Positions 1 to 49,609 are shown, counted from the stretch's first letter. The stretch is DNA of 64,000 nucleotides from an uncultured Gemmatimonadales bacterium (GCA_963783305.1 CAWAMW010000016.1:64001-128000), one strand, 5' to 3'. Notes: generated by a model from the letters alone, not told the origin. Program-made: numbers and translations.

Positions 1-585
1 CAGACCGACAACCCCGAGAATCCAGAGCGATACCCGCACGTCCGCCGTCTTGAAGTAGAAGTAGGGAGGGAGGTGAAGGCCGGCGAGGAAGTTGGCGATC
101 CGACGCGACGGCCCCGCGTCGTCGTCCCCGCTCGCGGAGCGCAGCGTGTCCCGCAGCATCGAGAGCGCCACCAGCGAGAGGATGAACACGAACACCGCAC
201 TGATGTACAGGTCCGCGGCGGCCGAGCCGCCCGAGCCGTGACCATCCCCGCCGCTCGCGAACAGTGCGCTGTTGATCCACACCGCCACCCGGATCCCGAT
301 GAACGAGGTCAGGATCAGGAAGGCGCCCAGGCGCTTGTCCACGTTGCCCAGCTCGCCGTGCTTCCGCGAGCCCATCATCGCCTTGCCGAACTTGTGGGCG
401 ATGTTGCTCCCCACCGCCACCACACCCGGCACCCCGAGGTTCATCATCCCAGGGGTCATGAAGAAGGCGCCGCCGCTCCCTATGAAGCCGGACAGAATGC
501 CGCCGATGAGCCCCAGGACCATGACCTGAATGGCGCTGGACAGGTCCAGGGTAACGAAGTTCGAAACCAGGAATGAGCTTTCCAT
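1..585 (-). CDS. TauE/SafE-family sulfite exporter (3' end runs off the window)
   Basis: My translation from ATG 585: MESSFLVSNF...GLIGGILSGFIGSGGAFFMTPGMMNLGVPGVVAVGSNIAHKFGKA. The G-x-G-G-x4-P motif and hydrophobic helices match TauE. Absent from the ORF track because there is no stop in the window. Confidence 0.85.
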   Translation of the reverse strand, partial: MESSFLVSNFVTLDLSSAIQVMVLGLIGGILSGFIGSGGAFFMTPGMMNLGVPGVVAVGSNIAHKFGKAMMGSRKHGELGNVDKRLGAFLILTSFIGIRVAVWINSALFASGGDGHGSGGSAAADLYISAVFVFILSLVALSMLRDTLRSASGDDDAGPSRRIANFLAGLHLPPYFYFKTADVRVSLWILGVVGL

Positions 586-588
586 GAT

Positions 589-2094
589 CTACTCCATCTT
601 GATCAGCTTCATGACCGACCGGGTCACGGTCCCGTAGGACCAGGCGATGACCGGGATGAAGGCGAAGACGGTGAGGGCGACGAGGAGGCGGCTGATGGCT
701 CCGCCCCTGGCGGCGAGGAACTCGAGTACGGGGACCTGATTGAAGAAGACGGCGAGGTAGAGGATCACGACAACGACCAGGTATCCCACGAGTCGCACGG
801 TGTCGCGCCGGCCGAAGAGGAACTCGGCGCGGAGCTCGTCGACGGTGACGACGGGGACGCGCATCCGGCTGGAGATGGACTCCTGGACCTCGCGGCGCAG
901 CCGCATGCGGGCGGCGGGGTTCTTGTCCAGGAACATGTCGCCCATCACCACGAGGGAATGGGGTACGCCGCTGCAGCAGGTGGAGACCAGGCTCCTGCGC
1001 TGGCCGGTGACCAGGCGGGCGCCTCCGGACTTGCCCAGGCGGGCCAGCTCGGTGAGCGTGGCATCCAGCCCCGGGTCGACCGCGGCGTCCTCCACGTCCT
1101 CCTCGATGCCGCCCGGAGCCGCGAGTATCGAAGGCGCGGCCACAGCGCCGGCCAGCGCGGGCTCCGGTGTGGGCGACGCGACGCCGGAGGCTACGAACCG
1201 GACGAGCTCGACGGCGGCGTTCCATTTCTGGGCGATCTCCACCACGCTGCGGAAGGCTTCGCCGCCCGGATCGAAGCTCTCCTGGATCCAGAGGATGGTG
1301 GTGGAGGCCATGGTGACCGCGATGTTTCTGGCGTCGGGGAGGGTCGCCAGCACGGGCTCGATGTGCGGCGCGACTTCCGCGTCGTGGGGCAGGTAGGTGA
1401 CCGTGAGAGCGCGGTTGTGGGCCGTGGCGGTGAAGCTGAAGCGCCGGGTCCGTGGGTCCTCCGCCAGCAGCAGGCGCGCGCGCGCCGACAGCCGCAGGTC
1501 CTCGAGGGTGCGGCGGGAGGCCGGCGTCATCTGGAACTCGGGGAGCTGGCACATGCCGAGGAGCGACGCCGCCGCGTTGCGGACGTTCATCCGCTCCACA
1601 TTCACCACCACATCGTATTCCGCGGCCTCCTCACCGGACACGCCGTACATGCCGCGGGCCCAGTTCCGCCGGTCTTCCTCGACGGCCTCGAGGTAGCGGC
1701 GGGCCTTTTCGTGGTCGAGGCCGAGGTCGCGCATGGTGGCGGAGATGCGCCCCTCCTCGTCGGCCACCAGCCGCACGCGGAGCACGTGATTGACGCCGCG
1801 TAGCAGGAGGTGCCCGGTCCGGCCGTGATAGACGATCGGACCCTCGAGGGCCCTGTCGCAGAGGTAGGCGGTGCAGAACGCCAGGTAGTGGTCGCGCTCC
1901 CGGGCCAGCCGCTCGGTGAACATCTGCGGCTTCACGATGCTCGTCTCGAGCTTGCTCACCTGGACGCCGGCGAGGATCGCCTCCTCGATCAGCTTCTCAC
2001 GGCTGATCACCGCATAGCCGAGCTTCTCGGCCAGGGTCTCGGCCAGCTCCTTGCCCCGGGACAGCGAGCCTCTGGAAACACAGATAATCTGCAT
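589..2094 (-). CDS. Cytidylate-kinase-like protein with extra domains and two C-terminal TM helices
   Basis: Start MQIICVSRGSLSRGKELAETLAEKLGY after a GGAGGAG RBS; VYHGRTGH, LRVRLVA and YDVVVN motifs; hydrophobic C-terminus. The ORF-track extension to 2604 overlaps the upstream gene. Confidence 0.8.
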   Translation of the reverse strand: MQIICVSRGSLSRGKELAETLAEKLGYAVISREKLIEEAILAGVQVSKLETSIVKPQMFTERLARERDHYLAFCTAYLCDRALEGPIVYHGRTGHLLLRGVNHVLRVRLVADEEGRISATMRDLGLDHEKARRYLEAVEEDRRNWARGMYGVSGEEAAEYDVVVNVERMNVRNAAASLLGMCQLPEFQMTPASRRTLEDLRLSARARLLLAEDPRTRRFSFTATAHNRALTVTYLPHDAEVAPHIEPVLATLPDARNIAVTMASTTILWIQESFDPGGEAFRSVVEIAQKWNAAVELVRFVASGVASPTPEPALAGAVAAPSILAAPGGIEEDVEDAAVDPGLDATLTELARLGKSGGARLVTGQRRSLVSTCCSGVPHSLVVMGDMFLDKNPAARMRLRREVQESISSRMRVPVVTVDELRAEFLFGRRDTVRLVGYLVVVVILYLAVFFNQVPVLEFLAARGGAISRLLVALTVFAFIPVIAWSYGTVTRSVMKLIKME

Positions 2095-2138
2095 GGTACC
2101 ACTCCTCCCCGGTTCCCGGGGACTCGGAGTTGAAGAGC

Positions 2139-3740
2139 TCACGGGGGACCGCCGAGCACTGGCATGCCCATGGCCGGCCAGACGAAGCACACGAAGAGCG
2201 CCAGGACGGCCATCAGGAGGAGGCTGGCGGGGACACCGGCGATGAAGAACTCCTTCGTCGTGAACTGGTTGCTGGTGTAGGCGATGGCGTTGGGCGCAGC
2301 GCCGATCAGGAGGAGGAAGGGCATCCCGGCGGTGACGAGACACGCGAAGAGGACAACCTCCGGGGCTACGCCCAGGTAGGGTGCCATGACGAGGGCCACC
2401 GGCATGGTGATGGCGATGGCAGCGACGTTCATGATGAAGTTGGTCATGACCAGCACGAACGCCGCGATGCCGAGGACGAAGACGACCCAGTGGGCGTTCA
2501 CGAAGAGGGACAGCCAGTGGATGGCCAGCCAGGAGGCGGCACCGGTCTCCCACAGGCAGAAGCCGAGGCTCATGGCCCCGCCGAAGAGCAGGATGATGTT
2601 CCACGACGTCTTCTCGAGATCCTCGAGGGAGACGATCCGGAGCACGAAGAAGAGGACGGTGGCGGTGAGGATGATGGCGCTCTTGTCCACCTCGGCCATG
2701 GCCGGCACGAAGTTGCGCACGCTGAGGAGCGTGATGGCCATGAGCACGAGAACGAGAGCCAGCACCTCCTCGCGGGTGATGGGGCCGAGGTTCTCGTGGA
2801 GACGCCGGACCCGGTCGCGGAGCCCCGGGATCGTCTTCCGCTCGGGTGGATACCAGAGCATCATGTACCCCCAGATCAGGAGGGTCATCAGGATGCCCAC
2901 CGGGAACATGAAGAAGGACAGCTCGAAGAAGCCGATGGACCCGCCGGTGATCTGGTTGTAGAAGCCGAGGGCCACGGCACCGCGGGCGGCGCCCAGGAGG
3001 GTGATAATGCTCCCGGCCCCCGCCACGAAGGCCATCCCCATGAACAGCCCTTTCCCGAAGCGGGTGGGCTCGGTGTCATCGGAGTAGAGGGCGTAGACGG
3101 CGAGCAGCAGCGGGAACACGGTGGCCGCCACGGCGGTGTGGGCCATGATGAGGGTGAGGGCGGCGGTGAGGGCGAAGCAGCCGAGATAGATCATGCTGGT
3201 CCGCTCGCCCACGATGCTGAGCATGCGGTAGGCGAGGCGTCGGGTCAGGCCGGTCTTGGTGAAGACCATGCCGAACATGAGGGACCCGAAGATGAACCAG
3301 ACGGACGGGTCCATGAAGTCGGTGAACGCGGTGCGGGCCGGTCGGATGAGGAAGAGCGCCTGCAGGACGCCCACCGCGATGCTGGTCACGCCGATGGGGA
3401 CCACCTCGCTGATCCACCAGGTGGCGGCGAAGAGGAAGAGTCCGAGGGCCGCCTTCCCCTGCGGCGTGAGGGGGAAGGCCTCTCCCCGCGGATCCATGGC
3501 GGGGCCCGGGGTGGGAGCGAAGTAGAGGAGCGCGAACAGCGCCACGCCCAGTATGACGAATACGACCCGTCGCCGCTGCGCGGCCGGGGTGAGCTGGGGC
3601 GCGGAGGGCGGCGGTCCATCGCCGTCCCCGGCCACGCGTTTGGCGATGCGGACGGACCCCGGCCGCTCGGCAACCGTCGCGTGGCCGACACCCTTCTCCT
3701 CCATCCCCCCCTTCGCGGGGGCCACCACCGGACTGGACAT
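2139..3740 (-). CDS. DASS/SLC13-family anion transporter (probable sulfate permease)
   Basis: Many TM helices; WWISEVVPIGVT, TNFIMNVAA and PNAIAY motifs. Sulfate as substrate is inferred from context. Confidence 0.85.
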   Translation of the reverse strand: MSSPVVAPAKGGMEEKGVGHATVAERPGSVRIAKRVAGDGDGPPPSAPQLTPAAQRRRVVFVILGVALFALLYFAPTPGPAMDPRGEAFPLTPQGKAALGLFLFAATWWISEVVPIGVTSIAVGVLQALFLIRPARTAFTDFMDPSVWFIFGSLMFGMVFTKTGLTRRLAYRMLSIVGERTSMIYLGCFALTAALTLIMAHTAVAATVFPLLLAVYALYSDDTEPTRFGKGLFMGMAFVAGAGSIITLLGAARGAVALGFYNQITGGSIGFFELSFFMFPVGILMTLLIWGYMMLWYPPERKTIPGLRDRVRRLHENLGPITREEVLALVLVLMAITLLSVRNFVPAMAEVDKSAIILTATVLFFVLRIVSLEDLEKTSWNIILLFGGAMSLGFCLWETGAASWLAIHWLSLFVNAHWVVFVLGIAAFVLVMTNFIMNVAAIAITMPVALVMAPYLGVAPEVVLFACLVTAGMPFLLLIGAAPNAIAYTSNQFTTKEFFIAGVPASLLLMAVLALFVCFVWPAMGMPVLGGPP

Positions 3741-3769: not shown

Positions 3770-4297
3770 TCACTCGAGCAGCATTGCCAGCTCATTGAAC
3801 ACGTCCACGGACCGCACCACCCCCACGAGGTCACCGCCATCCACGACGGGGATCAGGCTGAGGTCGAGGGAGACCATGGTGGAGAGCGCCTTCATGATGT
3901 GGTCATCCGCGGACAGGACGGCCTCGATGGGGCGCATGACATCGCTGACCGGGCGGGCACCCTGTTTCCGGATCCCGCTCACCATCCGGTCGAAGGGGAG
4001 CTCGGCCAGGTTGGGGTCGATGGCGATGTCGAAAGGCTTGTTGCGGTATTCCAGCGGGCGACTGAGGAGGAAGCGCGGCTCGAGCCCCCTCAGGATGTCG
4101 CGGCGGCGGACGTAGCCGACCAGGACCTCGATCCCGTCGAAGACGAGGACGCAGCGGGGCAGGGACTTGCGGAGCGCGACCTCGAGCTGTGCCGAGGTGA
4201 AGACCGCCATGGCGTCGCGGAGCGAGGCCGTGTCCCTCACCGATGGGTACCGATCGATGGGGATCAGGATATCCTTGAGGTGTGTCATCGAGTCCAC
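3770..4297 (-). CDS. CBS-domain pair protein
   Basis: VSDVMRPI...IPVVDGGDLVGVVRSVDVF CBS motif. Confidence 0.85.
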   Translation of the reverse strand: MDSMTHLKDILIPIDRYPSVRDTASLRDAMAVFTSAQLEVALRKSLPRCVLVFDGIEVLVGYVRRRDILRGLEPRFLLSRPLEYRNKPFDIAIDPNLAELPFDRMVSGIRKQGARPVSDVMRPIEAVLSADDHIMKALSTMVSLDLSLIPVVDGGDLVGVVRSVDVFNELAMLLE

Positions 4298-4301
4298 GCT
4301 C

Positions 4302-4739
4302 CTACCACCCCCTCTTGCGCGTGATGTCGTTGATGCGCCGCTGGATCCTCTGGTCGTCGAGCGTGGCGCGACGGTGGGCCGCGTCCTCGATGAGGTCCAC
4401 CAGCTCGGCGAGCTCGGCCGGCTTCTCCACCAGGTCGAGTGCTCCGGCCTTCATGGCCTCCACCGCCTGCGCGACGGTGGCGCGGCCGGTGAGGATGATC
4501 ACCTGGAGGTCGGGGTAAAGGGCGCGGAGGCCGCGCATCGTCTGGAGCCCGTCGAGCCCGGGCATGGCCATGTCGAGGAGCACCGCGTCATAGCCGCGGT
4601 CGCGGCCGCGGGCGCTCGCGAGGGCGTCGGCGCCGCTCGTGGCCACGTCGACCTCGAGGCCGCGCGCCGCGAGTCGTGCGCCCAGCACCGCCACGAAGTC
4701 TTCCTCATCGTCGATCAGCAGAACCCGTATATCGCTCAT
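4302..4739 (-). CDS. Single-domain response regulator
   Basis: MSDIRVLLIDDEEDF...LLDMAMPGLDG...ILTG...EKP; short helical tail. Confidence 0.9.
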   Translation of the reverse strand: MSDIRVLLIDDEEDFVAVLGARLAARGLEVDVATSGADALASARGRDRGYDAVLLDMAMPGLDGLQTMRGLRALYPDLQVIILTGRATVAQAVEAMKAGALDLVEKPAELAELVDLIEDAAHRRATLDDQRIQRRINDITRKRGW

Positions 4740-5137
4740 GATTCGACCCTCCGATCCGCGGCGTCCTTCAGGACCTGCTCCAGCACCTCGATGGCGACCG
4801 GCTTGGACAGGAGCGTGCGGGCACCAACGGCGTGCGCCGCCTCGTCGTCCTCGGGTGCGGTTCGCCCGGTGAGCAGGACGACCTCCGTCTCCGGATGGTC
4901 GGCGCGGATCCGGGCGGTCAGCTCGAGACCGCCGATCCCGGGCATCCGGATATCCACCAGCACCACGTCCCACGACTCCCGCGCCATGCGGTCCAGCGCC
5001 GCCACGCCGTGCGTGACGCCCGCGGCGATGAAGCCCCGGAGCTGGAGGCGCTCGGTGAGCGCGCTCACCAGCTCCTCCTCGTCATCCACGATCAGCACGC
5101 GCACGGTTTCCATAGGGTGCTCCGGCTCAGAGTTCAT
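4736..5137 (-). CDS. Single-domain response regulator
   Basis: VLIVDDE...VDIRMPGIGG...LLTG...SKP. Confidence 0.9.
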   Translation of the reverse strand: MNSEPEHPMETVRVLIVDDEEELVSALTERLQLRGFIAAGVTHGVAALDRMARESWDVVLVDIRMPGIGGLELTARIRADHPETEVVLLTGRTAPEDDEAAHAVGARTLLSKPVAIEVLEQVLKDAADRRVES

Positions 5138-6884
5138 CCACGGGAAGGGTGACGGTGAATCGCGTCCCCTCTCCCACCGTGCTCTCGACGGTTATGTCCC
5201 CGCCGAGCTTCTGGACGATGCCATATGTGATGGACAGCCCCAGGCCGGTCCCCGCCCCCTTCTTGGTCGTGAAGAACGGATCGAAGATCCGGGGCAGGTT
5301 TTCCTCGCTGATGCCCACGCCGTCATCGAAAATGGTCACGGCCACCGCCCCGCGGCTCGACGGGCCCACCTCGAGCTCTATGTGCCCGCCGTCCTCCACC
5401 GCCGCGAAGGCGTTGTTGATGATGTTCAGGAACACCTGCTGGAGCTGACCGCGGTCGCTGACGACGGGGGGCGTGTCCTCGGCGTGACGCAGCTCGATCT
5501 CGATCTCGCGATAGCGGGCCTCCTGCTCCAGGAACCCCAGGACCTCATGCAGCAGCACGTCCAGGTGGATCGTCTCGCGCTGCACGTCCATGTGCTTCGC
5601 GAAGCCGAGGAGGCGGTGGGTGATCCCGCCGCAGCGCTCCGCCGACTTCAGGACCGAGTCCAGGATCTCCAGCATCTTCTCGCGTGGGGGCGGCTCGGAG
5701 GAGCGGGTGAGGAGGTCGTGCAGCAGCCCGGCCTTCTGACTGATGATGGACAGCGGATTGTTGATCTCGTGCGCGACCCCGGCCCCGAGGCGGCCGATGG
5801 CCGCCAGCTTGTTGGTGTACTCGATCTCGTGGAAGAGCGCGGCGCGTCGGCGGTCGGCCTCGCGAGCGGTGCGGACGGCGTAGATCGCGCCGCCGATGAC
5901 GAGAGCCAGGATGATGATCCCGCTGACGAGGGGCAGCAGCACGAGGTCTCGGCGGAGCGAGGCCCAGCCGGCGTGGAACTCGTCGCGGGGGCTGAGCAGG
6001 ACCAGCGTGAAGGGGGAGCGCTGGAGGCGCGCGAAGGCCGCCACCACGGGCGTGCCGAGCCCGTCCGTGGTGGAGATGAAGGTGGTCTCCTCGGTGTAGG
6101 GCAGCGGGGGCAGGGGCGCGGTGTCGAGCACGGCGCCGTAGAGCCGTGAGGGTGTCTGGAGCACGCCGTGGTCGTTGACGATGAACGCGTCGCTGAAGGT
6201 GGGGACGCCCAGGGCGTGGCAGCGCCCGCAGGCGGAGCCGCGCTCGGGCCGTCGGCTGCCCCGATCGCGTACCAGCCAGTGGAAGACGTCAGTGTCGATG
6301 GTCGCCCGCAGCGCGAACCAGCGGCCACCGCCGCGGTCCCCATGGATGGCGACCACGATGTGGGGGAGGTTTCGGTACCCCAGGAATACGTCGCTGACGT
6401 GGGACCCGCGCGTGGCGACCTCCCGGAACCACTCCTGCTCGCTGTAGTCGCGTCCCTCCAGCGCGTACGGGCCCGCGTAGGCGACCTGCAGCCCGCTGTC
6501 ATCGATGAGCCCGAGGTCCACCACACCGCTGAACGTCTGCTCCAGGTCGCGGAGCACCGCCTCCAGCCGGGCCGGTTCCGTCAGCGACTCGTACGAGTTG
6601 CTCCGGACCACGAGGTGGAGCGCCGACAGCCGCTCGTCCAGGTACGCTTCCAGCGAGTGCCTGCCCGCTTCCGCGAACCGGAGCATCGGTCGGGTCTGCT
6701 GTGATCGGAACGCCTCCCGGTATTCCCGGTAGCTGATCCAGGACATGACGCCGAGAGGGAGCAGTGAGATGGCCGAGACGACCAGCACGAACGTGATGAG
6801 CATCCGGCGGTAGCGGCCGCCGGAGATCAGTCGCTCGACATCCGGTCGTTCCGTGGGGGGTGGACCCCGACCCTTGGTGCGCAT
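5127..6884 (-). CDS. Membrane sensor histidine kinase with Cache-like periplasmic domain
   Basis: Two TMs; H box AHEINNPL, N box NIINNA, DDGVGI, FDPFFTTK, GTGLGL. Confidence 0.92.
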   Translation of the reverse strand: MRTKGRGPPPTERPDVERLISGGRYRRMLITFVLVVSAISLLPLGVMSWISYREYREAFRSQQTRPMLRFAEAGRHSLEAYLDERLSALHLVVRSNSYESLTEPARLEAVLRDLEQTFSGVVDLGLIDDSGLQVAYAGPYALEGRDYSEQEWFREVATRGSHVSDVFLGYRNLPHIVVAIHGDRGGGRWFALRATIDTDVFHWLVRDRGSRRPERGSACGRCHALGVPTFSDAFIVNDHGVLQTPSRLYGAVLDTAPLPPLPYTEETTFISTTDGLGTPVVAAFARLQRSPFTLVLLSPRDEFHAGWASLRRDLVLLPLVSGIIILALVIGGAIYAVRTAREADRRRAALFHEIEYTNKLAAIGRLGAGVAHEINNPLSIISQKAGLLHDLLTRSSEPPPREKMLEILDSVLKSAERCGGITHRLLGFAKHMDVQRETIHLDVLLHEVLGFLEQEARYREIEIELRHAEDTPPVVSDRGQLQQVFLNIINNAFAAVEDGGHIELEVGPSSRGAVAVTIFDDGVGISEENLPRIFDPFFTTKKGAGTGLGLSITYGIVQKLGGDITVESTVGEGTRFTVTLPVDEL

Positions 6885-6892
6885 GCCCCGCC

Positions 6893-7834
6893 TCAGCCGC
6901 CGGTGCCGGCAGCGGACGGGTCCGGCGGAGCGGTCGCTCCCGACCGCCCCGCGCGCCGGATGGTGTCCATCAGGATCTCGATGTCCACCGGCTTCTGCAG
7001 GTAGTCGAGCGCGCCCAGGCGTCGAGCCTCCTTCTCATCGCGTTCCGAGCCGTGGCCCGTGAGGATGACGACGGGCAGCTCCGGGTAAAGCTTCTTCACC
7101 CGCCGGAGCACCTCCAGGCCATCGAGGTCCGGCATGCGGAGATCGAGGACCATGACGTCCGGCCGCTCCCCCTCCAGAAGCTCCAGTGCCTGCGCCCCCC
7201 CCAGCGCCACGTCGCCGCCCATCTCCCGCATCCGCATCCGCTCCTCCAGCGTGCGGACGAAGTCCTCCTCATCGTCGACGAAGAGCACCTTGAGCGACCC
7301 CGGGGCCGCGTGTGCGCTCGGCTCGACCGGCGATGCGGGCGCAGGGGCGCGGGCCTCGGCTCGCTCGGACTCCAGGTACTCCACGGCGAGGTCGGTGCCC
7401 CCCTCCGCGAGTGCGGCGGCGGTCATGGACCGGCTGAACTCGCGTCCGGACTCCTTCAGCGCGTCCAGCGCCCGTCTCCACGCAGAGCGGATGGAGTCCA
7501 GCAGCTCCCCGGTGTCCGCCGGCTTCTCCAGATAGCGATAGGCACCCAGCCGCCGTGCCTCCTCCTCGGCCTCCGGGGAGCCGCGGCCCGTGAGGACGAT
7601 GACCTGGATATGGGGGTGCTCGCGCTTTACGCGCTCCAGCACCGTCATCCCGTCGATCCCCGGCATGCGGAGGTCGAGGACCACGACGTGAGGGGCGTCG
7701 GCCGCCACCGCCTCGAGCGCCTCTTCACCGCTGAGGGCGACCCGGGCGGCGACATCGCGCAGAGCCAGGCGCCCGGCCATCGCGCGGACATAGTCCTCCT
7801 CGTCGTCCACGAGGAGCAGCTTGAGCGGGCTCAT
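6893..7834 (-). CDS. Tandem double-receiver response regulator
   Basis: Two complete receiver domains (LLLVDDEED and VLFVDDEED, each with DLRMP and KP) joined by a helical/Pro-rich linker. Confidence 0.9.
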   Translation of the reverse strand: MSPLKLLLVDDEEDYVRAMAGRLALRDVAARVALSGEEALEAVAADAPHVVVLDLRMPGIDGMTVLERVKREHPHIQVIVLTGRGSPEAEEEARRLGAYRYLEKPADTGELLDSIRSAWRRALDALKESGREFSRSMTAAALAEGGTDLAVEYLESERAEARAPAPASPVEPSAHAAPGSLKVLFVDDEEDFVRTLEERMRMREMGGDVALGGAQALELLEGERPDVMVLDLRMPDLDGLEVLRRVKKLYPELPVVILTGHGSERDEKEARRLGALDYLQKPVDIEILMDTIRRAGRSGATAPPDPSAAGTGG

Positions 7835-10930: not shown

Positions 10931-11376
10931 CAGTGGCCCGTGGTGAGCAGGCCGCTCGCCGCGGCCAGCAGCACGCCGATCTCCAGGATGGCGATGGCGG
11001 CATAGACGCGATCGCCATTCCGGATCAGCGTCGGGAGGATGACGGCGAAGCAGAGGATGGTGATGCCCGCGAGGATGGCGATGCCCACGAAATTCAGGTA
11101 GTCGCCTTTGCCGAGGGCCGAGAGCCACCACCAGCCCGTGAGGTGCTGGTCCCGGTGGAGGTAGTCGTGATTGATGGCTTCCAGGTACTCGCCCACGGGC
11201 AGGCTCCAGTACTCCGGCAGGTCATGGATGGGCACCGCCGGCTCCACCAGCCCGGTGATATAGACGAGGAAGGTGAGGAGCAGGATGGCGAGCCCGGAGT
11301 ACATCCCCGCGGACAGCACGTTCGCGTAGATCCGCTGCTCTTCGGTGATCCCTGGACTGGTTCCGGATTCCGTCAT
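10930..11376 (-). CDS. DUF1634-like membrane protein (usual TauE partner)
   Basis: EEQRIYANVL, GDYLNFVGIAIL, three TMs; directly follows a TauE gene. Confidence 0.75.
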   Translation of the reverse strand: MTESGTSPGITEEQRIYANVLSAGMYSGLAILLLTFLVYITGLVEPAVPIHDLPEYWSLPVGEYLEAINHDYLHRDQHLTGWWWLSALGKGDYLNFVGIAILAGITILCFAVILPTLIRNGDRVYAAIAILEIGVLLAAASGLLTTGH

Positions 11377-11398
11377 TCCGTGCCTCGTTCCGTCCTGG

Positions 11399-24030: not shown

Positions 24031-24032
24031 GG

Positions 24033-37697: not shown

Positions 37698-37757
37698 TTG
37701 ACCGGCTGGGGGCGGTGCGGTGCGGCTGGGTGTCGACGCCTTTCGGAAGAGGTGGAT

Positions 37758-42097: not shown

Positions 42098-42126
42098 CTA
42101 TGGGAGTCGGAGAAACGGAGGTGCCG

Positions 42127-42498
42127 GTGAGAATCGCGATTCCCCGCATGGGCGAGATCATCGCCCCCTGCTTCGAGCACTGCGCCACCATGGCCGTCTT
42201 TCGCGTGGGGACGGAGGGAGAGATCGAACAGGTGGACTACCCGCTGCGGAGCCGGGAGCCGTTCGATCGGGTCCGTCTCCTCCGCGACCAGGAAGTGGAC
42301 TGCGTGATTTGCGGCGCGGTGGCGGGTCTCTACGAGGACGTGCTCCGGACGACCGGCGTGGAAGTGATCTCGTGGGTCGCCGGGAACGTTGAGGATCTCC
42401 TCTCGCTGTATCTGAGAGGACGACTCGAGGCCGGGGTGGAGCTGCCCACGGGTGCGAGACCCGCCCCTCTGCAGGTGGAACGGACGTGGGAGGTGTGA
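42127..42498 (+). CDS. NifB/NifX-family (FeMo-co-binding fold) protein
   Basis: VRIAIP...IAPCFEHC...VICGAV...GVEVISWVAGNVED; GTG after GGAGG. ATG 42100 would lie upstream of the predicted TSS. Confidence 0.8.
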   Translation: MRIAIPRMGEIIAPCFEHCATMAVFRVGTEGEIEQVDYPLRSREPFDRVRLLRDQEVDCVICGAVAGLYEDVLRTTGVEVISWVAGNVEDLLSLYLRGRLEAGVELPTGARPAPLQVERTWEV

Positions 42499-42501
42499 TC
42501 A

Positions 42502-43953
42502 GTGGCGACGGCACAGCGGTACCCATACAACGTGGAGCAGAAGGGGCTGGAGGGTCAGGATCGGCCGAAGCGATTCCTGCGGGCCCTGTCGGCCATCCTC
42601 GAGCACGGCAATTACGCGGTGGCGCTGGACACCTTCGCCCGCACGAGCGCCCGCTGCGGCCGCTGCGCGGCAAGCTGTCAGCTCTACGAGGCGACCGGGG
42701 CGCCGGAGGACATCCCGTGCCACCGCTCGGAGCTGCTGCTGCGGGTTTACCGCCGCTACTTCACCACGGCGGGGCTGCTGCGGGCGCGGCTCGTGGGCGG
42801 CTTCGAGCTGACGGACGACTACATCGATGAGATGGCCACCGCGTTCTGGCGGTGCACGGCATGCCGCCGCTGCCGCTCCACCTGCCCGGTGGGGATCGAC
42901 CACGGTCTGATCACGCACCTGGCGCGCTGGGCGCTGGGCGAGCTCGACCTGGTGCCCCGGGCGCTGGTGGTATCGGTGCGCGAGCAGCTGGAGGGGAAGA
43001 CGGGGAACACGTCGGCGATCCCGCTTCCGGCGCTGAAGGACACGTGCGAGTTCCTGACCGAGGAGCTGCACGACATCTACGGCGTGGACATCGAGTACCC
43101 CTTCGACGTGAAGGACGCGGAGTACGTCTTCTTCCCGGCGGTCTCGGACTTCCTCATGGAGGCCGACACCCTCATGGGGAACGCGGCGGTCATGCACGTG
43201 ACCGGCGGGTCGTGGACCATCGGGACGGGGAACTACGACGGGATCAACTACGGCCTCTTCTACTCCGACCGCGTGATGGAGCGTGTGGTCCGGAACGTGG
43301 TCGCCGAGGCGCGGCGCCTGAATGCCCGCAAGATCCTCGTCGGAGAGTGCGGCCACGCCACGCGCTCCGCCTGGTACGTGCCCACGTACGGCGGCCCCGA
43401 CGCGCCGCGGGTGGTGAACTGCATGGAGTACACCCACGCCATGCTCGAGGCCGGCCGCATCCCGCTCAAGAACGAGCGCATCCTGGAGCGGGTCACGTAT
43501 CACGACCCGTGCAACATCGCCCGCGTGGGCCGCATCACCGAGCAGCCCCGTGAGATCCTGAAGGCCATCTGCGCCGACTACGTGGAGATGACCCCGAACC
43601 GCCAGGACAACTACTGCTGTGGCGGGGGCGGCGGCACCGTGTCCATCGACGAGATCCGGGCGTTCCGCACCGGCCCCCTCGGCCGCCGGAAGGCCGACCA
43701 GATCCGGGACACAGGGGCGCAGCTCGTCGTCTCGCCGTGTGCCAACTGCAAGAAGCAGCTGAAGGAGCTCTGCCAGGACAATGCGGGGCTGGGCGACGTG
43801 GAGGTAGTGGGGCTCCACGACCTGCTGCTGCGGGTGATCGACTTCGGCGCCGCCACGGCGCAGGGCGCCGTTCCCGAACCGGCTGAGTCGGAAGCCGCGT
43901 TGAAAGCGGCTTCGGAGCCGGCGATCAAGCCCGTTGAGGCCGTCGCCGAATAG
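42502..43953 (+). CDS. HmcF/TmcB-like Fe-S CCG-domain oxidoreductase
   Basis: CTACRRCRSTCPVGID, GECGHA, YHDPCN, CCGGGGG, SPCANC; first Cys of the N-terminal ferredoxin motif is Ser (SARCGRCAASC). Confidence 0.85.
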   Translation: MATAQRYPYNVEQKGLEGQDRPKRFLRALSAILEHGNYAVALDTFARTSARCGRCAASCQLYEATGAPEDIPCHRSELLLRVYRRYFTTAGLLRARLVGGFELTDDYIDEMATAFWRCTACRRCRSTCPVGIDHGLITHLARWALGELDLVPRALVVSVREQLEGKTGNTSAIPLPALKDTCEFLTEELHDIYGVDIEYPFDVKDAEYVFFPAVSDFLMEADTLMGNAAVMHVTGGSWTIGTGNYDGINYGLFYSDRVMERVVRNVVAEARRLNARKILVGECGHATRSAWYVPTYGGPDAPRVVNCMEYTHAMLEAGRIPLKNERILERVTYHDPCNIARVGRITEQPREILKAICADYVEMTPNRQDNYCCGGGGGTVSIDEIRAFRTGPLGRRKADQIRDTGAQLVVSPCANCKKQLKELCQDNAGLGDVEVVGLHDLLLRVIDFGAATAQGAVPEPAESEAALKAASEPAIKPVEAVAE

Positions 43954-43995
43954 TCGTCGGTAGCGGATTCCAGGACCAGACGAGGGAGGCGCGGG

Positions 43996-44697
43996 ATGGA
44001 GGCATGGCTGGAGCTCGGGAAGGGGCCCCTCTTCCGGGTGGCGCTGGTGGTCATGGCGCTGGGGCTCGTGCGCCACCTGGCGTTGACGCTCCTGGAGGCG
44101 CGACGGGCCTACGCTCGGGCAGGCGACCGGGTGATCCCGGTGCGGCGGGTCCTTCGCGAGACGCTGGCCTGGCTGCTGCCCACCCACCGCCTGCGGAACC
44201 GCTGGCCGTACAGCGCGACGACCGTCGCTTTCCACGTGGGCGTGATCCTGGTGCCGGTCTTCCTGGCCGGCCACATCGCTCTGCTGGGCGGCGCGCTCGG
44301 CTTCACCTGGCCGGCGCTCCCCGCGGACGTGGCGACGGTGCTCACGCTGCTGACGCTCACCGCCGCCCTGGCGGTGGTCGCGCAGCGCGTCTCGAGCCGC
44401 GAGTCCCGCGCCCTCGGGGGCTTCCAGGACTACGCGCTGCCGCTCCTGGTGGCCCTGGTCTTCGCCAGCGGGTTCGCGGTCGGCCACCCGGCGTGGAACC
44501 CCTTCGGCCGCGACCCGGTGCTCCTCACCCACGTCCTGGCCGGCGACCTCCTGCTGTTCCTCGTTCCGTTCACCAAGCTGACCCATATGGTCCTCCTCCC
44601 GCTGACCCGGTTCGTGGGTGAGCTGGCCTGGCACTTCCCGCCCGACGCCGGCCAGAAGGTCGGCGTCGCGCTGGGGAAGGAGGACGAGCCGATCTGA
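43996..44697 (+). CDS. HmcE/TmcC-like NarI-family membrane subunit
   Basis: GKGPLFR, FHVG, FLAGH, THVLAGD, PFTKLTH. Confidence 0.8.
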   Translation: MEAWLELGKGPLFRVALVVMALGLVRHLALTLLEARRAYARAGDRVIPVRRVLRETLAWLLPTHRLRNRWPYSATTVAFHVGVILVPVFLAGHIALLGGALGFTWPALPADVATVLTLLTLTAALAVVAQRVSSRESRALGGFQDYALPLLVALVFASGFAVGHPAWNPFGRDPVLLTHVLAGDLLLFLVPFTKLTHMVLLPLTRFVGELAWHFPPDAGQKVGVALGKEDEPI

Positions 44698-44699
44698 CC

Positions 44700-45503
44700 A
44701 TGAGCGCCGCCATTCTGATCGATACGACCCGCTGCACCGGCTGCGAGACCTGCGTCGTCGCGTGCAAGGAAGAGAAGGGGCTGGGCCCGGACCGTCTGCG
44801 AGCGGGGCAGCAGTCGGTACACGCCCTCTCCTCCACCCGCTTCACCACCGTGCTCCGCCGCCCCGGCGAGCAGTACGTGAAACAGCAGTGCCGGCACTGC
44901 CTCGAGCCCGCGTGCGTCAGCGCCTGCCTCGTCGGTGCCATGCAGAAGACCCCCGAGGGGCCGGTCATCTACGACTCAGAGCTCTGCATGGGGTGTCGCT
45001 ACTGCATGGTCGCGTGTCCGTACTCCATCCCGCGCTACGACTGGGAGGAGCCGGCGCCGTACGTCCGGAAATGCGACATGTGCTACGAGCGCATCACCGC
45101 CGGCGGGCTCCCGGCGTGCGTGGAGGCGTGCCCCGAGGGCGCGCTGGAGTTCGGCGACCGCGACGCGCTGATCGCCGCCGCCCATGGCCGCATCGCCGCG
45201 CACCCCGACCGCTACGTCCCGGAGGTGTTCGGCGAGCGGGAGTTCGGTGGCACGTCGGTCCTCTACCTGGCCGACATGTCGCTCGGGTTCCTGAGCTGGG
45301 CGAAGGAGCTGCGGAGCGATGAGCTGCCGCCGCTCACCTGGGCGTCTCTGAAGAAGGTGCCCTGGGAGGTGGTGGGGATGGGCGGTGCCATGACCGGCCT
45401 CTACTGGGTGATCAACCGCCGCATGACCCTCGCGGCGCGGGCGGCGCACGCGGCGCAGGAGGCGCACGCGGCGCGGGTGGAGGAGGAGGTGCGCGATGTC
45501 TGA
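44700..45503 (+). CDS. HybA/HmcB-like 4x[4Fe-4S] protein with C-terminal anchor
   Basis: CTGCETCVVAC, CRHCLEPACVSAC, CMGCRYCMVACP, KCDMC, GGTSVLYL. Confidence 0.9.
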   Translation: MSAAILIDTTRCTGCETCVVACKEEKGLGPDRLRAGQQSVHALSSTRFTTVLRRPGEQYVKQQCRHCLEPACVSACLVGAMQKTPEGPVIYDSELCMGCRYCMVACPYSIPRYDWEEPAPYVRKCDMCYERITAGGLPACVEACPEGALEFGDRDALIAAAHGRIAAHPDRYVPEVFGEREFGGTSVLYLADMSLGFLSWAKELRSDELPPLTWASLKKVPWEVVGMGGAMTGLYWVINRRMTLAARAAHAAQEAHAARVEEEVRDV

Positions 45504-47463
45504 TCGGCTGAGCCGACTGAAGACCGTGCTCTGGGCGCTCGTGGGTGTACTGGCCGCCGTGAGCGTGATCCGCTTCACCTATGGCCTGGGAGCCGTCACG
45601 GACCTCTCCGACTCGGCTCCGTGGGGGCTCTGGATCGGCTTCGACGTCATGTCCGGCGTCGCGCTGGCTGCAGGCGGCTTCGTACTGGCCGCCACGGTCC
45701 ACATCTTCCGCCTGGAGCGGTACCGACCGTTCGTCCGCGCCGCCATCCTGACGGCGCTGCTGGGATATGCCGCCGTGGCGGTGGGGCTCCTCTACGATCT
45801 CGGGCTGCCCTGGCGGATCTGGCACCCGCTGGTCCACTGGCAGATCCACTCCGTGCTGTTCGAAGTGGCCATGTGCGTGATGCTCTACCTTGCCGTGCTG
45901 GCGCTGGAGTTTGCCCCCGTGGTGCTCGAGCACCCACGCTTCGACCGGCCTCTCTTCCGGAGCCTCCTCCGCGGGCTTCGGCGCGTGACCATCCCGCTGG
46001 TGATTGCCGGCATCGTGCTTTCCACGCTGCACCAGTCGTCGCTCGGCTCACTCTTCCTCATCGCGCCCGACCGGCTCCACCCGCTCTGGTACTCGCACAG
46101 CATCTACCTCCAGTTCTTCATCTCGGCCGTGGCGCTGGGGCTCACCACCGTGATCCTCGAGGCACTCTTCTCCCGCTACTTCCTCGGCCACCAGGTCCAT
46201 GCCCAGGAGGTCGGCGGCCTCGGCCTCGCCGCCTCCCTCGTGCTCTGGCTCTACCTGGCCATCCGGCTCGGCGACCTGGCCGCGCGCGGGGTATTGGGCA
46301 CCGCCCTCGACGGCTCCTGGCAGGCCCGGCTCTTCCTCTTCGAGATCGCGCTCAGCGCCGCCGTACCCGCCACCCTCCTGCTGATTCCAGCCGTACGCGC
46401 GCGCCTGGCGTGGGTGGGCATTGCCGCCGGGATGGTCGTGGCCGGCCTGATCGGGCACCGCCTCGATGTCTCCATCGTCGCCTTCGCGCGGCCCGAGGGC
46501 TTCGCGTACTTCCCGACGTGGGAAGAGGTGGCGGTCAGCCTCGGGATCGTGGCCGGCGGGATGCTGGTGTTCCTCTTTTTCGTCGAGCGGCTGCGCGTCT
46601 TCGACGACGTGGCGGGCCTCGCTCCCCGGCGGGAGCCGAGTTGGGAGGCGGCCGGCGTGCGAACCCTCCGCGCGCCCGCCTCCGGGCTCCCGCGCCGCTA
46701 CAGCCTCGCGGCCCTGGGCGGAGCGGCGACCGCGCTCCTCTTCCTGCCCCTGGGCGGACCTTCGGCGCCCGCGTCGCCGGTGATGGCGCCCCGGCGGATG
46801 GAAGGGGCCGTTACCCGGGTCGGCCCCGGGCGGACGCCGGTCGTGGAGCTCGCCGACGCCGGGTCCGCCACCGCCCTGCTCCTCGTCATCGACGGGAACC
46901 GCGCGGGCGAGATCGCGCTCTTCGACCACGCGGCCCACGAGGCCCGGCTGGAGGAAGGGTCGTGTGCGACCTGCCATCACCTGGACCTGCCCCTCGACCG
47001 TGGCACCTCGTGCTCGGCATGCCACCGCGACATGTACGCGCCCACGCCGCTCTTCGACCACCGCCTTCACGAGGACGCGCTCGGCGGAACCGACGGCTGC
47101 GCCGAATGCCACGCCGCCGCAGCAGTTCACAGCTACGACACCGCGACCGCGTGCTCGGAGTGCCACGCACCCGGGCAGGGCGAGCGGATCGCTGCGCCGG
47201 AGCCGCACTGGCGCGATGCCGCGAGCTACATGGATGCCATGCACGGCCTCTGCGTGGAGTGCCACGAGGATGCCGTGGCTGCCGCGCCGGGCGACCATCC
47301 GGCCGACCTGGGCGCCTGCCGCACCTGCCACGACCCCGACGGTCAGGAGAAGCTCCGGCGGCTCCAGCCCCGGCCTGATCCCGCCGCCAGCGTGGCCGGC
47401 GCCGGAGCGCCCGCCGCCACAGCCGGCACCGCCATCAACGCCGCCGTTCGGCGCAGGGAGTGA
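45496..47463 (+). CDS. HybB/HmcC (NrfD-family) membrane protein fused to a hexaheme class-III-like cytochrome c
   Basis: PWGLWIGFDV, LAAGGF, STLHQSSLG; C-terminal CATCH, CSACH, CAECH, CSECH, CVECH, CRTCH with FDH..H motifs. Confidence 0.88.
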   Translation: MSDRLSRLKTVLWALVGVLAAVSVIRFTYGLGAVTDLSDSAPWGLWIGFDVMSGVALAAGGFVLAATVHIFRLERYRPFVRAAILTALLGYAAVAVGLLYDLGLPWRIWHPLVHWQIHSVLFEVAMCVMLYLAVLALEFAPVVLEHPRFDRPLFRSLLRGLRRVTIPLVIAGIVLSTLHQSSLGSLFLIAPDRLHPLWYSHSIYLQFFISAVALGLTTVILEALFSRYFLGHQVHAQEVGGLGLAASLVLWLYLAIRLGDLAARGVLGTALDGSWQARLFLFEIALSAAVPATLLLIPAVRARLAWVGIAAGMVVAGLIGHRLDVSIVAFARPEGFAYFPTWEEVAVSLGIVAGGMLVFLFFVERLRVFDDVAGLAPRREPSWEAAGVRTLRAPASGLPRRYSLAALGGAATALLFLPLGGPSAPASPVMAPRRMEGAVTRVGPGRTPVVELADAGSATALLLVIDGNRAGEIALFDHAAHEARLEEGSCATCHHLDLPLDRGTSCSACHRDMYAPTPLFDHRLHEDALGGTDGCAECHAAAAVHSYDTATACSECHAPGQGERIAAPEPHWRDAASYMDAMHGLCVECHEDAVAAAPGDHPADLGACRTCHDPDGQEKLRRLQPRPDPAASVAGAGAPAATAGTAINAAVRRRE

Positions 47464-47467
47464 TCTG

Positions 47468-48610
47468 ATGCCGCCGTATGCCCGCGAGCTCCAGGACTGG
47501 ATCCGCTCCGACCTGTTCGATGCGGTCCCGATGTCCATCAGCGTCATCAGCCGCAACTACCGGATCGTCGAGGCGAATCGGACCTTCGCGGAGTCCTTCG
47601 GCGACTGGCGGGGCAGGGCGTGCTATGAGGTCTACAAGGGGCGGGCCCAGCCGTGCCCTCGCTGTGGGGCGCTGGAGGCGTTCGTGGATGGCCGGTCTCG
47701 CACCCGCGAGGAGTCGGGCGTCGTGCAGGGCGGCCTCGCCATCGACTACCTCGTCCACCTGGTGCCGCTCGTGCGCACCAACGGCGAGATCCCGTACGTC
47801 ATCGAGATGTGCACCGACATCACCGCCGTGAAGCGGCTCGAGCGCGAGAAGCGCGAGGCGGAGCGGCTCGCCGCTGTCGGCGAGACCGTCGCCGGCATCG
47901 CCCACGGGATCAAGAACGTCCTCATGGGCCTGGAAGGCGGCATGTACGCCGTGAACACTGGGATCGCTCGGGGCGACGACCAGCGGATTGCCAGCGGCTG
48001 GGCCACGCTGGAAGAGAACGTCGGCCGCATCTCCGAGTTCGTGAAGGAGTTCCTGGACTTCGCCAAGGGCCGGGAGACCGACGTTCGCCCGGTGGATCCC
48101 GACGCCCCCGCTCGGGCCGTGGCGGAGCTGTTCCGCGATCGAGCGGCGCAGGTTGGCGTCCGGCTCGAAACCCGTCTGGCCGGCGGTCCGCTGTTCCCGC
48201 TGGACGAGGAGGGGGTCCACGCCTGCCTTTCGAACCTCGTCTCGAACGCCATCGACGCGTGTACCATGGCGGACCAGGACGGCCGCGAGTTCGTCATCAC
48301 TCTCGCCTCCCGGGCGGAGGAGGACACGCTGGTCTACGAGGTGGCCGACAACGGGGCGGGCATGGACTACGAAATCAGTCGCAAGGTCTTTTCGAAGTTC
48401 TTCACCACCAAGGGCTCCGACCGGGGCACCGGTCTGGGGCTCCTGACGACCAAGAGGATCGTCCACCAGCACGGCGGACAGATCACGTTCGAGACCCAGG
48501 AGGGCGAGGGATCGGTGTTCCGCATCACGCTGCCCAGGCACCGCACTGGCGAGGCCGCGGATGAGGACCGGACCGGCCCCACTCCCCTCCCGATCCAGGA
48601 GGAGGGGTGA
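47468..48610 (+). CDS. Cytoplasmic PAS histidine kinase
   Basis: PAS with CYE...CPRC; AHGIKN, NLVSNAIDA, DNGAGM, FFTTKG, GTGLGL. Confidence 0.92.
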   Translation: MPPYARELQDWIRSDLFDAVPMSISVISRNYRIVEANRTFAESFGDWRGRACYEVYKGRAQPCPRCGALEAFVDGRSRTREESGVVQGGLAIDYLVHLVPLVRTNGEIPYVIEMCTDITAVKRLEREKREAERLAAVGETVAGIAHGIKNVLMGLEGGMYAVNTGIARGDDQRIASGWATLEENVGRISEFVKEFLDFAKGRETDVRPVDPDAPARAVAELFRDRAAQVGVRLETRLAGGPLFPLDEEGVHACLSNLVSNAIDACTMADQDGREFVITLASRAEEDTLVYEVADNGAGMDYEISRKVFSKFFTTKGSDRGTGLGLLTTKRIVHQHGGQITFETQEGEGSVFRITLPRHRTGEAADEDRTGPTPLPIQEEG

Positions 48611-48614
48611 CCGT

Positions 48615-49163
48615 ATGGTGCGACCGGAAGACAGGACCGTGCTGGTGGTGGACGATGAGCCCAATGTCCGCATCTACCTCGCCCGCATCCTCCAGGACGC
48701 CGGCTTCCGCGTCCGAACCGCCGCCGACGGGTTCGAGGCGCTGGAGATGATCCGCCGCGAGCCGCCGGACTTCATCTCCCTCGACCTGGTCATGCCCCGG
48801 AAGAGCGGCCACAAGCTCCTCTACGAAATGCGAAAGGACCGCACGCTCGCCGACATCCCCGTCCTCATCGTCACGGCCCACGCCCGTGACGAGCTGGGCG
48901 AGGGGGAACTGAGGGAGATCGTGGAGGACCGGGTGATCTCGGGCCCCGGCGTCTATCTCGAGAAGCCCGTCCGGCCGCTGGACTACGTGCGGGCGGTGCA
49001 GCGGGCGGTGGGCGTCACCGAGACGCTCGCGGACGACGACCGGGTCGCGCTCCAGGAAGAGCTGCGAGACGCGCTGCCGGCCGCCGAGCCGCACGCGCTC
49101 CGTCGGGCGCTGGAAGCGCTGAGGAAGGCCCCCGCGGGCGGCGGGGACTCTCCGGATCATTAG
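48615..49163 (+). CDS. Response regulator (receiver plus short tail)
   Basis: VLVVDDEP, LDLVMPRKSG, IVTAH, EKP. Confidence 0.9.
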   Translation: MVRPEDRTVLVVDDEPNVRIYLARILQDAGFRVRTAADGFEALEMIRREPPDFISLDLVMPRKSGHKLLYEMRKDRTLADIPVLIVTAHARDELGEGELREIVEDRVISGPGVYLEKPVRPLDYVRAVQRAVGVTETLADDDRVALQEELRDALPAAEPHALRRALEALRKAPAGGGDSPDH

Positions 49164-49189
49164 ACCGCCCGGAAGTGGGAGACCGGAGC

Positions 49190-49609
49190 ATGCCGAGTCA
49201 GGTGGGTATGAGGAAGATCCTCATCGTGGATGACGAGCCCGCGGTGGTCAGCTATCTGGAGATGCTGCTCCAGGACCACGGCTACGCCACCGTAACCGCC
49301 GACGACGGGGAGTCGGCCATGGAGGAGGTGCGGAAGGAGCACCCGGACCTGGTGACGCTGGACATCTCCATGCCAACAGCCAGCGGGACCCGGTTCTACA
49401 AGGCGCTCAAGACGGACCCGGTGCTCGCGAGCACCCCCGTCCTGATCGTCACCGCGGTGACGGGCTACGGCGGGGACCCGTACGGCTACGAGAAATTCAT
49501 CAGCCGCAGCCGGCTCGTGCCGCCGCCGGAGGGGTTCTTCCCCAAGCCCATCGACCGCACCCGCTTCCTCGAGGAGGTGGACCGGCTCCTGCTCCACGCA
49601 GGGGTCTGA
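49190..49609 (+). CDS. Single-domain response regulator (Rrf1/DivK-like)
   Basis: ILIVDDEP, LDISMPTASG, IVTAV, PKP; start may instead be 49208. Confidence 0.88.
   Translation: MPSQVGMRKILIVDDEPAVVSYLEMLLQDHGYATVTADDGESAMEEVRKEHPDLVTLDISMPTASGTRFYKALKTDPVLASTPVLIVTAVTGYGGDPYGYEKFISRSRLVPPPEGFFPKPIDRTRFLEEVDRLLLHAGV

Follow-up and report, generated by a model that had tools for sequence, protein, structure and literature searches.

A 52-kb gene block with a predicted complete set for sulfate respiration in an uncultured Gemmatimonadota bacterium

We analysed a stretch of 64,000 nucleotides from an uncultured Gemmatimonadales bacterium (C16:64001-128000, here called the window), in which positions 1-49609 carry a block of genes for sulfate respiration. 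The genome comprises 4.35 Mb in 17 contigs and is 96% complete, and contig C16 is 803 kb long with an even GC content. Genes were called using a codon-position GC model, which gave 59 genes in the window, and were then subjected to profile searches against Pfam and NCBIfam; raw lists of open reading frames (ORFs) are crowded with shadow ORFs because the GC content of the window is 69%. Gene order was compared by tblastn of the window proteins onto the 80 closest dsrA loci in a species-level genome collection, and onto stretches from relatives in the same phylum. Two of these relatives recur throughout, namely G167, of the same genus, and G059, of another family in the same class, whose contig is 1.88 Mb long.

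All 37 genes between 37492 and base 1 lie on the minus strand. The run continues for 2.75 kb to the left of the window (the rest of a TauE gene, a response regulator and a histidine kinase) as far as C16:61247, so that it measures 40,246 bp and 39 genes, rather than the 36.5 kb of the initial annotation. Gaps between its genes are mostly below 130 nt, the longest being 307, 177, 125 and 123 nt. Together with a plus-strand part, the whole block measures 52,363 bp and lies 61-114 kb inside C16. The initial annotation had described a full sulfate respiration inventory at 1-49609, and this is confirmed: every gene that it named is intact, and most score above curated cut-offs.

The genes for sulfate activation and for reduction of adenosine 5'-phosphosulfate (APS) lie on the minus strand, as do all genes below 37492. 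They are aprB (36001..36468; TIGR02060, 183.6 bits, cut-off 135.65), aprA (34032..35951; TIGR02061, 870 bits, cut-off 641.75), qmoA (31363..32700), qmoB (29121..31370), qmoC, encoding the membrane subunit (27891..29108; NF038018, 398.7 bits, cut-off 300), and sat, encoding ATP sulfurylase (26554..27816; NF003166, 484 bits, cut-off 387). QmoA is an HdrA-like flavoprotein identified from HdrA-type matches below cut-off and from its position, and QmoB is HdrA-like with an FlpD/MvhD domain (PF02662, E 1.9e-37), identified likewise from its position. The pathway had been described as complete except for a pyrophosphatase (PPase), which is indeed the case for the block, and the genome encodes both an H+-PPase (C16:592795-594783, 883.9 bits) and a soluble PPase (on C17, 193 bits) elsewhere.

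The dissimilatory sulfite reductase genes follow. DsrC (25756..26073; TIGR03342, 119.9 bits, cut-off 53.5) keeps both C-terminal cysteines, its C-terminus being ...CKVAGLPKPTGCV. The dsrT gene (25037..25702) encodes an RsbRD_N domain (PF14361, E 1.2e-15) and occupies the position before dsrM. The dsrMKJOP genes (19897..25040) match five NCBIfam equivalogs, all above cut-off: dsrM (24033-25040; 478.3 bits, cut-off 300), dsrK (22309-24030; 714.6 bits, cut-off 400), dsrJ (21941-22312; 137.1 bits, cut-off 100, with three CxxCH haem motifs), dsrO (21094-21954; 272.7 bits, cut-off 200) and dsrP (19897-21060; 453.3 bits, cut-off 350). They are followed by dsrA (18615..19814; TIGR02064, 573.7 bits, cut-off 392.85; DsrA chains in the PDB at E 5.7e-164) and dsrB (17468..18550; TIGR02066, 476.2 bits, cut-off 341.5). 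Apparent DsrA-DsrB fusions in the related loci L027, L037 and L058 were rejected, as the reading frame had run through a stop.

Directly 3' of dsrB is a gene for a DsrD-like winged-helix protein of 82 residues (17208..17456), named from this position and from its predicted structure, a winged helix modelled with a pLDDT of 87; 70 distinct ORFs occupy the same position in related loci. The dsrL gene (15397..17082; NF009410, 560.8 bits, cut-off 516) was assigned to type 2 using the motif criteria of PMC7596348. DsrL has the YRR motif (...TVLYRRT...), and a Ser and an Arg (...CPSGNR...) where the distal N-terminal cluster would have its third and fourth ligands, a pattern which has been tied to the DsrL-2 of organisms with reductive DsrAB (Löffler et al., PMC7596348). 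The last gene of the set is dsrN (13980..15392; NF002204, 433.3 bits, cut-off 254), encoding a CobB-type amidase predicted to amidate sirohaem. The names dsrL, qmoA, qmoB, dsrT and dsrD rest on domains, position and motifs and not on a specific model.

The order of the block is kept in G059 and G167 at 40-87% protein identity. Almost all of the block is found in G059 with its order unchanged and with identities of 40-83%, rex to the DASS transporter gene on one strand and the sigma-54 activator to the last receiver gene on the other, and synteny ends exactly at 49609. In G167, the left two thirds are present, as far as its contig reaches. The dsrP gene lies directly upstream of dsrA in 24 of the 76 loci with upstream sequence, all of them in one DsrAB clade, and in none of the 52 others; loci outside the clade have the order dsrAB-D-(L/N)-C-T-MKJOP. 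The order dsrC-T-MKJOP-AB-D-L-N is therefore a hallmark of the lineage and not a peculiarity of this genome. Several of the closest loci are metagenome-assembled genomes (MAGs) labelled Gemmatimonadota with the gene order of the window. Comparison with relatives lacking dsr genes, which had been proposed as a way to find the borders of an island, gave none, the flanking genes in those genomes being only paralogues of 35-49% identity.

Two small Cys-rich proteins are encoded between aprA and qmoA. The first, of 98 residues, is zinc-ribbon-like (33612..33908; weak Ogr_Delta match, E 1.7e-5; syntenic in several phyla), and the second, of 245 residues, overlaps the start of qmoA (32697..33434; weak CxxCxxCC match, PF03692, E 0.0018, below cut-off; also syntenic). 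The pair is kept at this position in G059 and in L019, L036, L037, L044, L046, L049, L062, L063 and L071, loci which are labelled Acidobacteriota, Myxococcota or Deltaproteobacteria or are unlabelled, and the two proteins may be unnamed parts of the Apr-Qmo module. An OsmC-like protein (26145..26537; PF02566 and synteny) is encoded between sat and dsrC. Its gene is present in every Gemmatimonadota or Planctomycetota locus that covers the spot, and was not seen in loci of other phyla.

The left part of the minus-strand run contains genes for cofactor synthesis, transport and signalling. Two Cytidylate_kin2 paralogues (PF13189; 12494..13970, as 12494-13312 and 13314-13970) lie 3' of dsrN, a pair that is kept in L009, L010, L057, L064, G059 and G167; a third such protein, with two C-terminal membrane helices, is encoded at 589-2094, and the three share a degenerate P-loop. 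A TauE/TSUP permease (11399-12427) is accompanied by a three-helix membrane protein of 148 residues with a weak DUF1634 match (together 10930..12427). Sirohaem synthesis is represented by a sirC/cbiX fusion (10085-10930) and a cobA/hemD fusion (8517-10037), both matched in Pfam and NCBIfam. A signalling set at 3770..8520, in the same order in G059 and G167, comprises a 229-residue protein, a double-REC protein, a histidine kinase, two REC proteins and a CBS protein. It is followed by a DASS anion symporter, predicted to take up sulfate (2139..3740; TIGR00785, 216.8 bits, cut-off 198.6), and by a second TauE gene (1-585), which continues to the left of the window.

On the plus strand, two further redox systems are encoded. 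Paralogues of DsrMK (dsrM2K2, or HmeCD-like; 37752..40411) have Nitrate_red_gam and CCG domains and score 323.7 bits with the DsrK model, below its cut-off of 400. They are followed by a PAS-sigma-54 activator (40423..41775; PF00158, E 2.7e-65) and by an Hmc/Tmc-like complex (42100..47463), which consists of FeMo-co-like, HmcF/TmcB-like, TmcC/HmcE-like and HmcB-like proteins and an HmcC-like NrfD-cytochrome fusion, in the same order in G059. All its members score below equivalog cut-offs (HmcB 244.4 bits, cut-off 420; HmcC 304.9, 550; HmcF 193.6, 750; TmcC 120.4, 240). The HmcC/NrfD-type subunit (45496-47463) is fused to a C-terminal six-haem cytochrome c, with six CxxCH motifs at residues 490-612, whereas the Hmc and Tmc families have a separate multihaem cytochrome, HmcA or TmcA. 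The set is predicted to work like the Hmc/Tmc complexes but is not a member of those families. A four-gene set of this kind also adjoins dsrAB in loci labelled Ignavibacteria, Bacteroidota, Kryptoniota and Acidobacteriota.

The right end of the conserved block, where synteny with G059 stops, is formed by a histidine kinase and two REC proteins (47468..49609, plus strand). Of the two flanking proteins named in the initial annotation, the ADOP permease scores 760.2 bits (cut-off 622.3) and the FN3/leishmanolysin-type protein has fn3, He_PIG and Peptidase_M8 domains, so that both identifications stand. A UPF0182 gene further to the right (54822-57566) is a second, divergent copy: its orthologue in the same genus is 73-79% identical and split over two contigs, and the copy in four other genomes of the family is only 35-36% identical to it. 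The same contig carries a second respiratory set related to sulfur about 33 kb to the left of the window, at 993-6745 of stretch L086 (G000:C16:24001-44000, G000 being the genome of the window). It encodes YeeE-type sulfur transporters, one of them with a rhodanese domain, as well as an octahaem cytochrome and a multihaem-cytochrome b fusion.

The minus-strand run begins with rex, encoding a redox-sensing repressor (36776..37492; NF003994, 197.9 bits, cut-off 130; Pfam Put_DNA-bind_N and CoA_binding). A predicted Rex operator, TTGTGAATTTCTTCACGA, is located at 36516..36533, 48 nt upstream of aprB, with one mismatch to the consensus, and a weaker Rex-like site with three mismatches is found at 37680..37697, in the divergent promoter region between rex and the dsrM2-like gene. 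In all, three sites with up to three mismatches were found against 0.26 expected, a number reached by none of 100 shuffled sequences. The initial annotation placed the co-oriented genes behind one Rex-boxed promoter. The co-orientation is correct; the single promoter is not supported, the strong site lying after rex and preceding aprB only, rather than the whole run.

The same two promoter regions share a rare palindrome-like motif, identified by pattern search: TTAACATACGTCAA (as read on the minus strand) at 36680..36693, upstream of aprB, and TTAACCCACGTCAA at 37646..37659, upstream of rex. The exact pattern TTAACNNACGTCAA occurs in only these two places in the 4.35-Mb genome, and the looser form TTRAC-N4-GTYAA occurs four times. 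This near-palindrome is possibly a CRP/FNR-type operator, to judge from its form; no gene for a CRP/FNR-type regulator is encoded in the window, and the motif is absent from the promoters of the G059 block. The sole TTRAC-N4-GTYAA site of G167 (L103, G167:C79, around 10075) is followed by the Rex half-site TTGTGAA and stands in front of a gene cluster encoding NmrA-like, cytochrome c, multihaem cytochrome, OsmC-like and HmcB/HmcC-like proteins. To judge from this placement, the motif could be the signature of a small regulon of anaerobic redox genes. Scans for consensus promoters and terminators gave no signal above shuffles, and the strict sigma-54 consensus was matched 16 times against 18.3 expected. 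No RNA run was among the public sequencing runs found for the window. A loose sigma-54-like element (TGGTTT-N5-TTGCA, with the correct GG-N10-GC spacing) is present at 42080-42095, 3' of the sigma-54 activator gene, and immediately precedes the start predicted for the FeMo-co-like gene (42100); the true start may be a later ATG.

We consider it likely that the block is a complete sulfate-to-sulfide respiration set, old in its host lineage, which a probable facultative aerobe would use under anoxia. The reductive direction is indicated by the DsrD-like gene, by the DsrL-2 motifs and by the lack of a DsrH match (PF04077) in the 96% complete genome, DsrE and DsrF not having been searched for separately. 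A facultatively aerobic host is suggested by the several genes for haem-copper oxidases, subunit I (COX1 family) having at least six strong matches in the genome.

The following scheme can be proposed from the gene content. Sulfate would be imported by the DASS symporter, possibly aided by the TauE/TSUP permeases, and converted by Sat to APS, with the pyrophosphate split by one of the PPases encoded outside the block. AprBA would reduce APS to sulfite with electrons drawn from the quinone pool via QmoABC, and DsrAB with DsrC would turn sulfite into the DsrC trisulfide, whose reduction by DsrMKJOP would set sulfide free. The CobA/HemD and SirC/CbiX fusions would provide the sirohaem of DsrAB, with DsrN amidating it, while the DsrD-like protein may activate DsrAB and DsrL-2 may supply DsrAB with electrons from NADPH. 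For Desulfovibrio DsrD, stimulation of sulfite reduction by DsrAB is reported (PMC8794893). Periplasmic donors may have their link to DsrC in the DsrMK paralogues and in the Hmc/Tmc-like complex, of which the six-haem cytochrome is a fused part. Control would be layered, with Rex sensing NADH/NAD+ at the aprB promoter, the rare palindrome at both promoters, the PAS-sigma-54 activator, and two two-component sets.

Several observations weigh against this interpretation. The DsrD-like protein has no Pfam DsrD match and no PDB sequence match in the profile search; its model matches DsrD (1ucr_A) with Z 7.8 and a root-mean-square deviation of 3.1 over 69 residues at 20% identity, which ranks 43rd and is tied with other winged helices, and a Foldseek search up to E 0.001 gave no support for DsrD. 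QmoA, QmoB and the Hmc/Tmc-like parts score below the NCBIfam family cut-offs. The strong Rex box is not kept in G059, and just one of nine other aprB loci has a site with three mismatches or fewer. Finally, reductive-type Dsr sets operate in reverse in some bacteria, as discussed in PMC6018796, so that sequence does not fix the direction.

The last point leads to the strongest alternative, that the block mainly serves reverse operation or disproportionation. In that case DsrMKJOP, DsrC and DsrAB would oxidise sulfide or sulfur to sulfite, and AprBA and Sat would take this on to sulfate, with electrons passing to oxygen or nitrate and, through DsrL, to NADP+, and with TauE exporting sulfite or sulfate. 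DsrL was first known from sulfur oxidisers (PMC7596348, PMC6018796), and sulfide- and sulfite-oxidising genes are reported in most Gemmatimonadota MAGs (PMC11316326). The many haem-copper oxidase genes would also suit an oxidative role, as would the other sulfur genes nearby, for YeeE-rhodanese and an octahaem cytochrome, which lie about 33 kb to the left. Against it are the DsrD-like gene, the absence of a DsrH match, the presence of dsrT, and a DsrL of type 2 (YRR, Arg), as found with reductive DsrAB; in addition, related marine clusters are interpreted as serving sulfate reduction in PMC11316326. Reverse operation is on balance unlikely, and respiration of sulfate remains the preferred function.

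The host was identified as a member of the Gemmatimonadota and not of the Desulfobacterota, as the initial annotation had suspected. Genes for dsrA were searched for in 401 genomes of the phylum. Eight of these, including that of the window, have dsrA above cut-off, among them one of seven other genomes of the same family. One of the positive genomes (G116, same order) is sequence-identical to a record labelled Gemmatimonadaceae, another (G049, same class) to one labelled Gemmatimonadota, and a third to one labelled only 'bacterium'. RpoB identities to the host are 87% for G167, 76% for G116, 72% for G049, 69% for G059 and 63% for G012, that is, 63-87% within the phylum sample, compared to 46-53% for five tested Planctomycetota genomes.

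A DsrAB tree of 78 rows was drawn from the 80 closest loci and the phylum relatives only. DsrAB of the window groups with its genus inside a clade of support 100, which contains 19 Gemmatimonadota, 6 Planctomycetota-labelled and 3 unlabelled rows. The nearest labelled relatives are lineages of Acidobacteriota, Ignavibacteria and Zixibacteria, which are called reductive in published papers. The Planctomycetota blocks have the same gene order as the window and a DsrA that is 74-81% identical; one of them, L068, is as similar to the window as is G059 (78 and 79% for DsrA, 82 and 82% for DsrK, 73 and 76% for DsrL, respectively). Because Planctomycetota blocks match like those of the same class despite RpoB identities of 46-53%, an old transfer between phyla is likely. 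The Planctomycetota dsr contigs agree with their own rpoB contigs in GC and tetranucleotide content, a check that is partly circular because binning itself uses composition.

One Gemmatimonadota genome of another class, G012 (L096, G012:C62), has DsrAB of a different lineage, which group with rows of Zixibacteria and Elusimicrobiota, and its genes are arranged otherwise, as dsrAB-D-N-L-sat-aprBA-dsrC-T-M. It represents a second origin of the pathway in the Gemmatimonadota. A single clade for all Gemmatimonadota DsrAB is rejected by the approximately unbiased test (p-AU 1.3e-8), for a group chosen after the tree was seen, whereas a Gemmatimonadota clade excluding the Planctomycetota is not rejected (p-AU 0.43). 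Nesting of the Planctomycetota inside the Gemmatimonadota is thus not robust, and within the class congruence of the gene and species trees is not rejected.

The initial annotation suggested a transferable module, which on these results holds in part. Its patchy occurrence (8 of 401 genomes), its presence in Planctomycetota and the second DsrAB lineage agree with transfer, while mobility genes, tRNA borders and unusual composition are lacking. No integrase, transposase or conjugation families of Pfam were found among the 59 genes of the window and 36 genes in 52 kb of flanks, and no tRNA was found in the window or in the stretches L085 and L086, direct repeats at the flanks not having been searched for. 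The GC content of the block is 0.686, compared to about 0.69 for the contig, and among 155 windows of 50 kb it ranks at the 79th percentile for tetranucleotide distance. It is therefore concluded that this is not a recent mobile island. Probably the block is old and resident, has been lost from or was never gained by most Gemmatimonadota, and was anciently exchanged with Planctomycetota.

The contrary view, of a recently acquired and still mobile genomic island, would draw on the same patchiness in phylum and family, on the shared order and high DsrA identity with Planctomycetota, on the rejection of a single Gemmatimonadota clade, and on the block flanks, which differ between the genome of the window and G059. 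Besides the missing mobility genes and border tRNA and the ordinary composition, it is opposed by the DsrAB groups, which track host families (f1 with f1, f6 with f6), and by the p-AU of 0.43 for a clade without Planctomycetota. We regard it as very unlikely. An assembly or binning artefact joining the block of another organism to a Gemmatimonadota contig, as might be feared from a metagenome-type assembly of 17 contigs and from the short Logan contigs of the best-matching run (right border, about 5x depth), which lend little independent support, is more improbable still: the block lies well inside an 803-kb contig of even GC and ordinary tetranucleotide make-up, its order recurs in G059 and G167, it is present in seven further genomes of the phylum sample, one on a contig of 1.88 Mb, and a 385-nt contig of run X1, which may be the source sample, spans the right border (49574-49958) with zero differences.

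A bolder proposal can be attached to the old and resident block, namely that the 52 kb form a self-contained cassette, with the enzymes, the means to make sirohaem, transporters, two further membrane redox complexes and regulation in three layers, and that this cassette has crossed between Gemmatimonadota and Planctomycetota as one piece and makes oxygen-respiring heterotrophs into facultative sulfate reducers. This is offered tentatively, and is possible rather than probable. If true, exchange in one piece would contradict the published view, given in PMC11316326, that Gemmatimonadota DsrAB were not exchanged with other phyla.

That paper (Microbiome 2024) reports clusters of DsrAB, SAT, AprAB and QmoABC in certain clades of marine Gemmatimonadota MAGs (21 of 100 and 16 of 85 MAGs of two groups), and says that transfer from other phyla does not appear to be the source of their DsrAB. 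The latter statement has to be qualified, since Planctomycetota share both clade and gene order and the DsrAB of G012 belong to another lineage. In other publications, dsrL is listed for Gemmatimonadetes and Planctomycetes (PMC7596348, 2020), and Gemmatimonadota MAGs that have both DsrAB and PhsA are regarded as probable sulfur reducers (PMC12345210). Anantharaman et al. (2018) list Planctomycetes and not Gemmatimonadetes, and the main text of a 2023 review of dsrAB carriers names neither Gemmatimonad* nor Planctomyc* (PMC10591310). An acidobacterium with a similar gene set has been shown to be a facultative aerobe that respires sulfate under anoxia (PMC10564751, summarised in PMC10591310). 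Given that the arrangement is common among dsr-positive Gemmatimonadota and that clusters are already in print (PMC11316326, PMC7596348), the high novelty first attributed to the block does not hold.

Hidden sulfur cycling in soils and sediments is attributed to non-classical sulfate reducers, and the block provides a clean and complete example from the Gemmatimonadota, a phylum without a cultured sulfate reducer. It suggests that the whole pathway moves and persists as a unit of about 50 kb together with genes for cofactors, transport and control, and it points to an old exchange with the Planctomycetota. Enrichment and transcript studies could start from the Rex box, the genome-unique palindrome and the sigma-54 activator. 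What is known of the pathway itself is unchanged.

Classical Desulfovibrio-type reducers have the same enzymes and predicted chemistry, and Rex control of sulfate reduction genes is known in them. Their genes are scattered over several loci, and dsrL is not known from these organisms, whereas here a single block includes dsrL, cofactor genes and transporters. The absence of dsrL from classical sulfate reducers is also noted in PMC6018796.

A closer likeness is found in the peatland Acidobacteria SbA1-7 (Hausmann et al., 2018; PMC6018796), which have sat, aprBA, qmoABC, dsrABCDNT, dsrMKJOP, dsrL and dsrM2K2 paralogues, sirohaem genes (dsrV, dsrWa), syntenic conserved unknowns and, in the same genomes, oxygen-respiration genes, much as in the present case, where a DsrD-like gene stands at the place of dsrD; in SbA2 the entire set is likewise on one scaffold. 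The Acidobacteriota are a different phylum, with a DsrA 66-72% identical to that of the window. Their loci have the order dsrAB-D-L-(N)-C-T-MKJOP with dsrM2K2 or Hmc-like genes upstream, compared to dsrC-T-MKJOP-AB-D-L-N in this block.

The marine Gemmatimonadota clusters belong to the same phylum and have the same core set (PMC11316326). They come from marine lineages, while the best-matching run for the window is labelled soil and may be its source. The passages of that paper drawn on here do not give the 52-kb extent, the embedded regulators, the sirohaem genes, the transporters or the gene order, which are described above. The block is thus a new, well-assembled and probably terrestrial example of gene sets already published for the Gemmatimonadota, to which the present analysis adds how large and how well conserved the block is, a gene order specific to its lineage, a connection with the Planctomycetota and a rare promoter motif.

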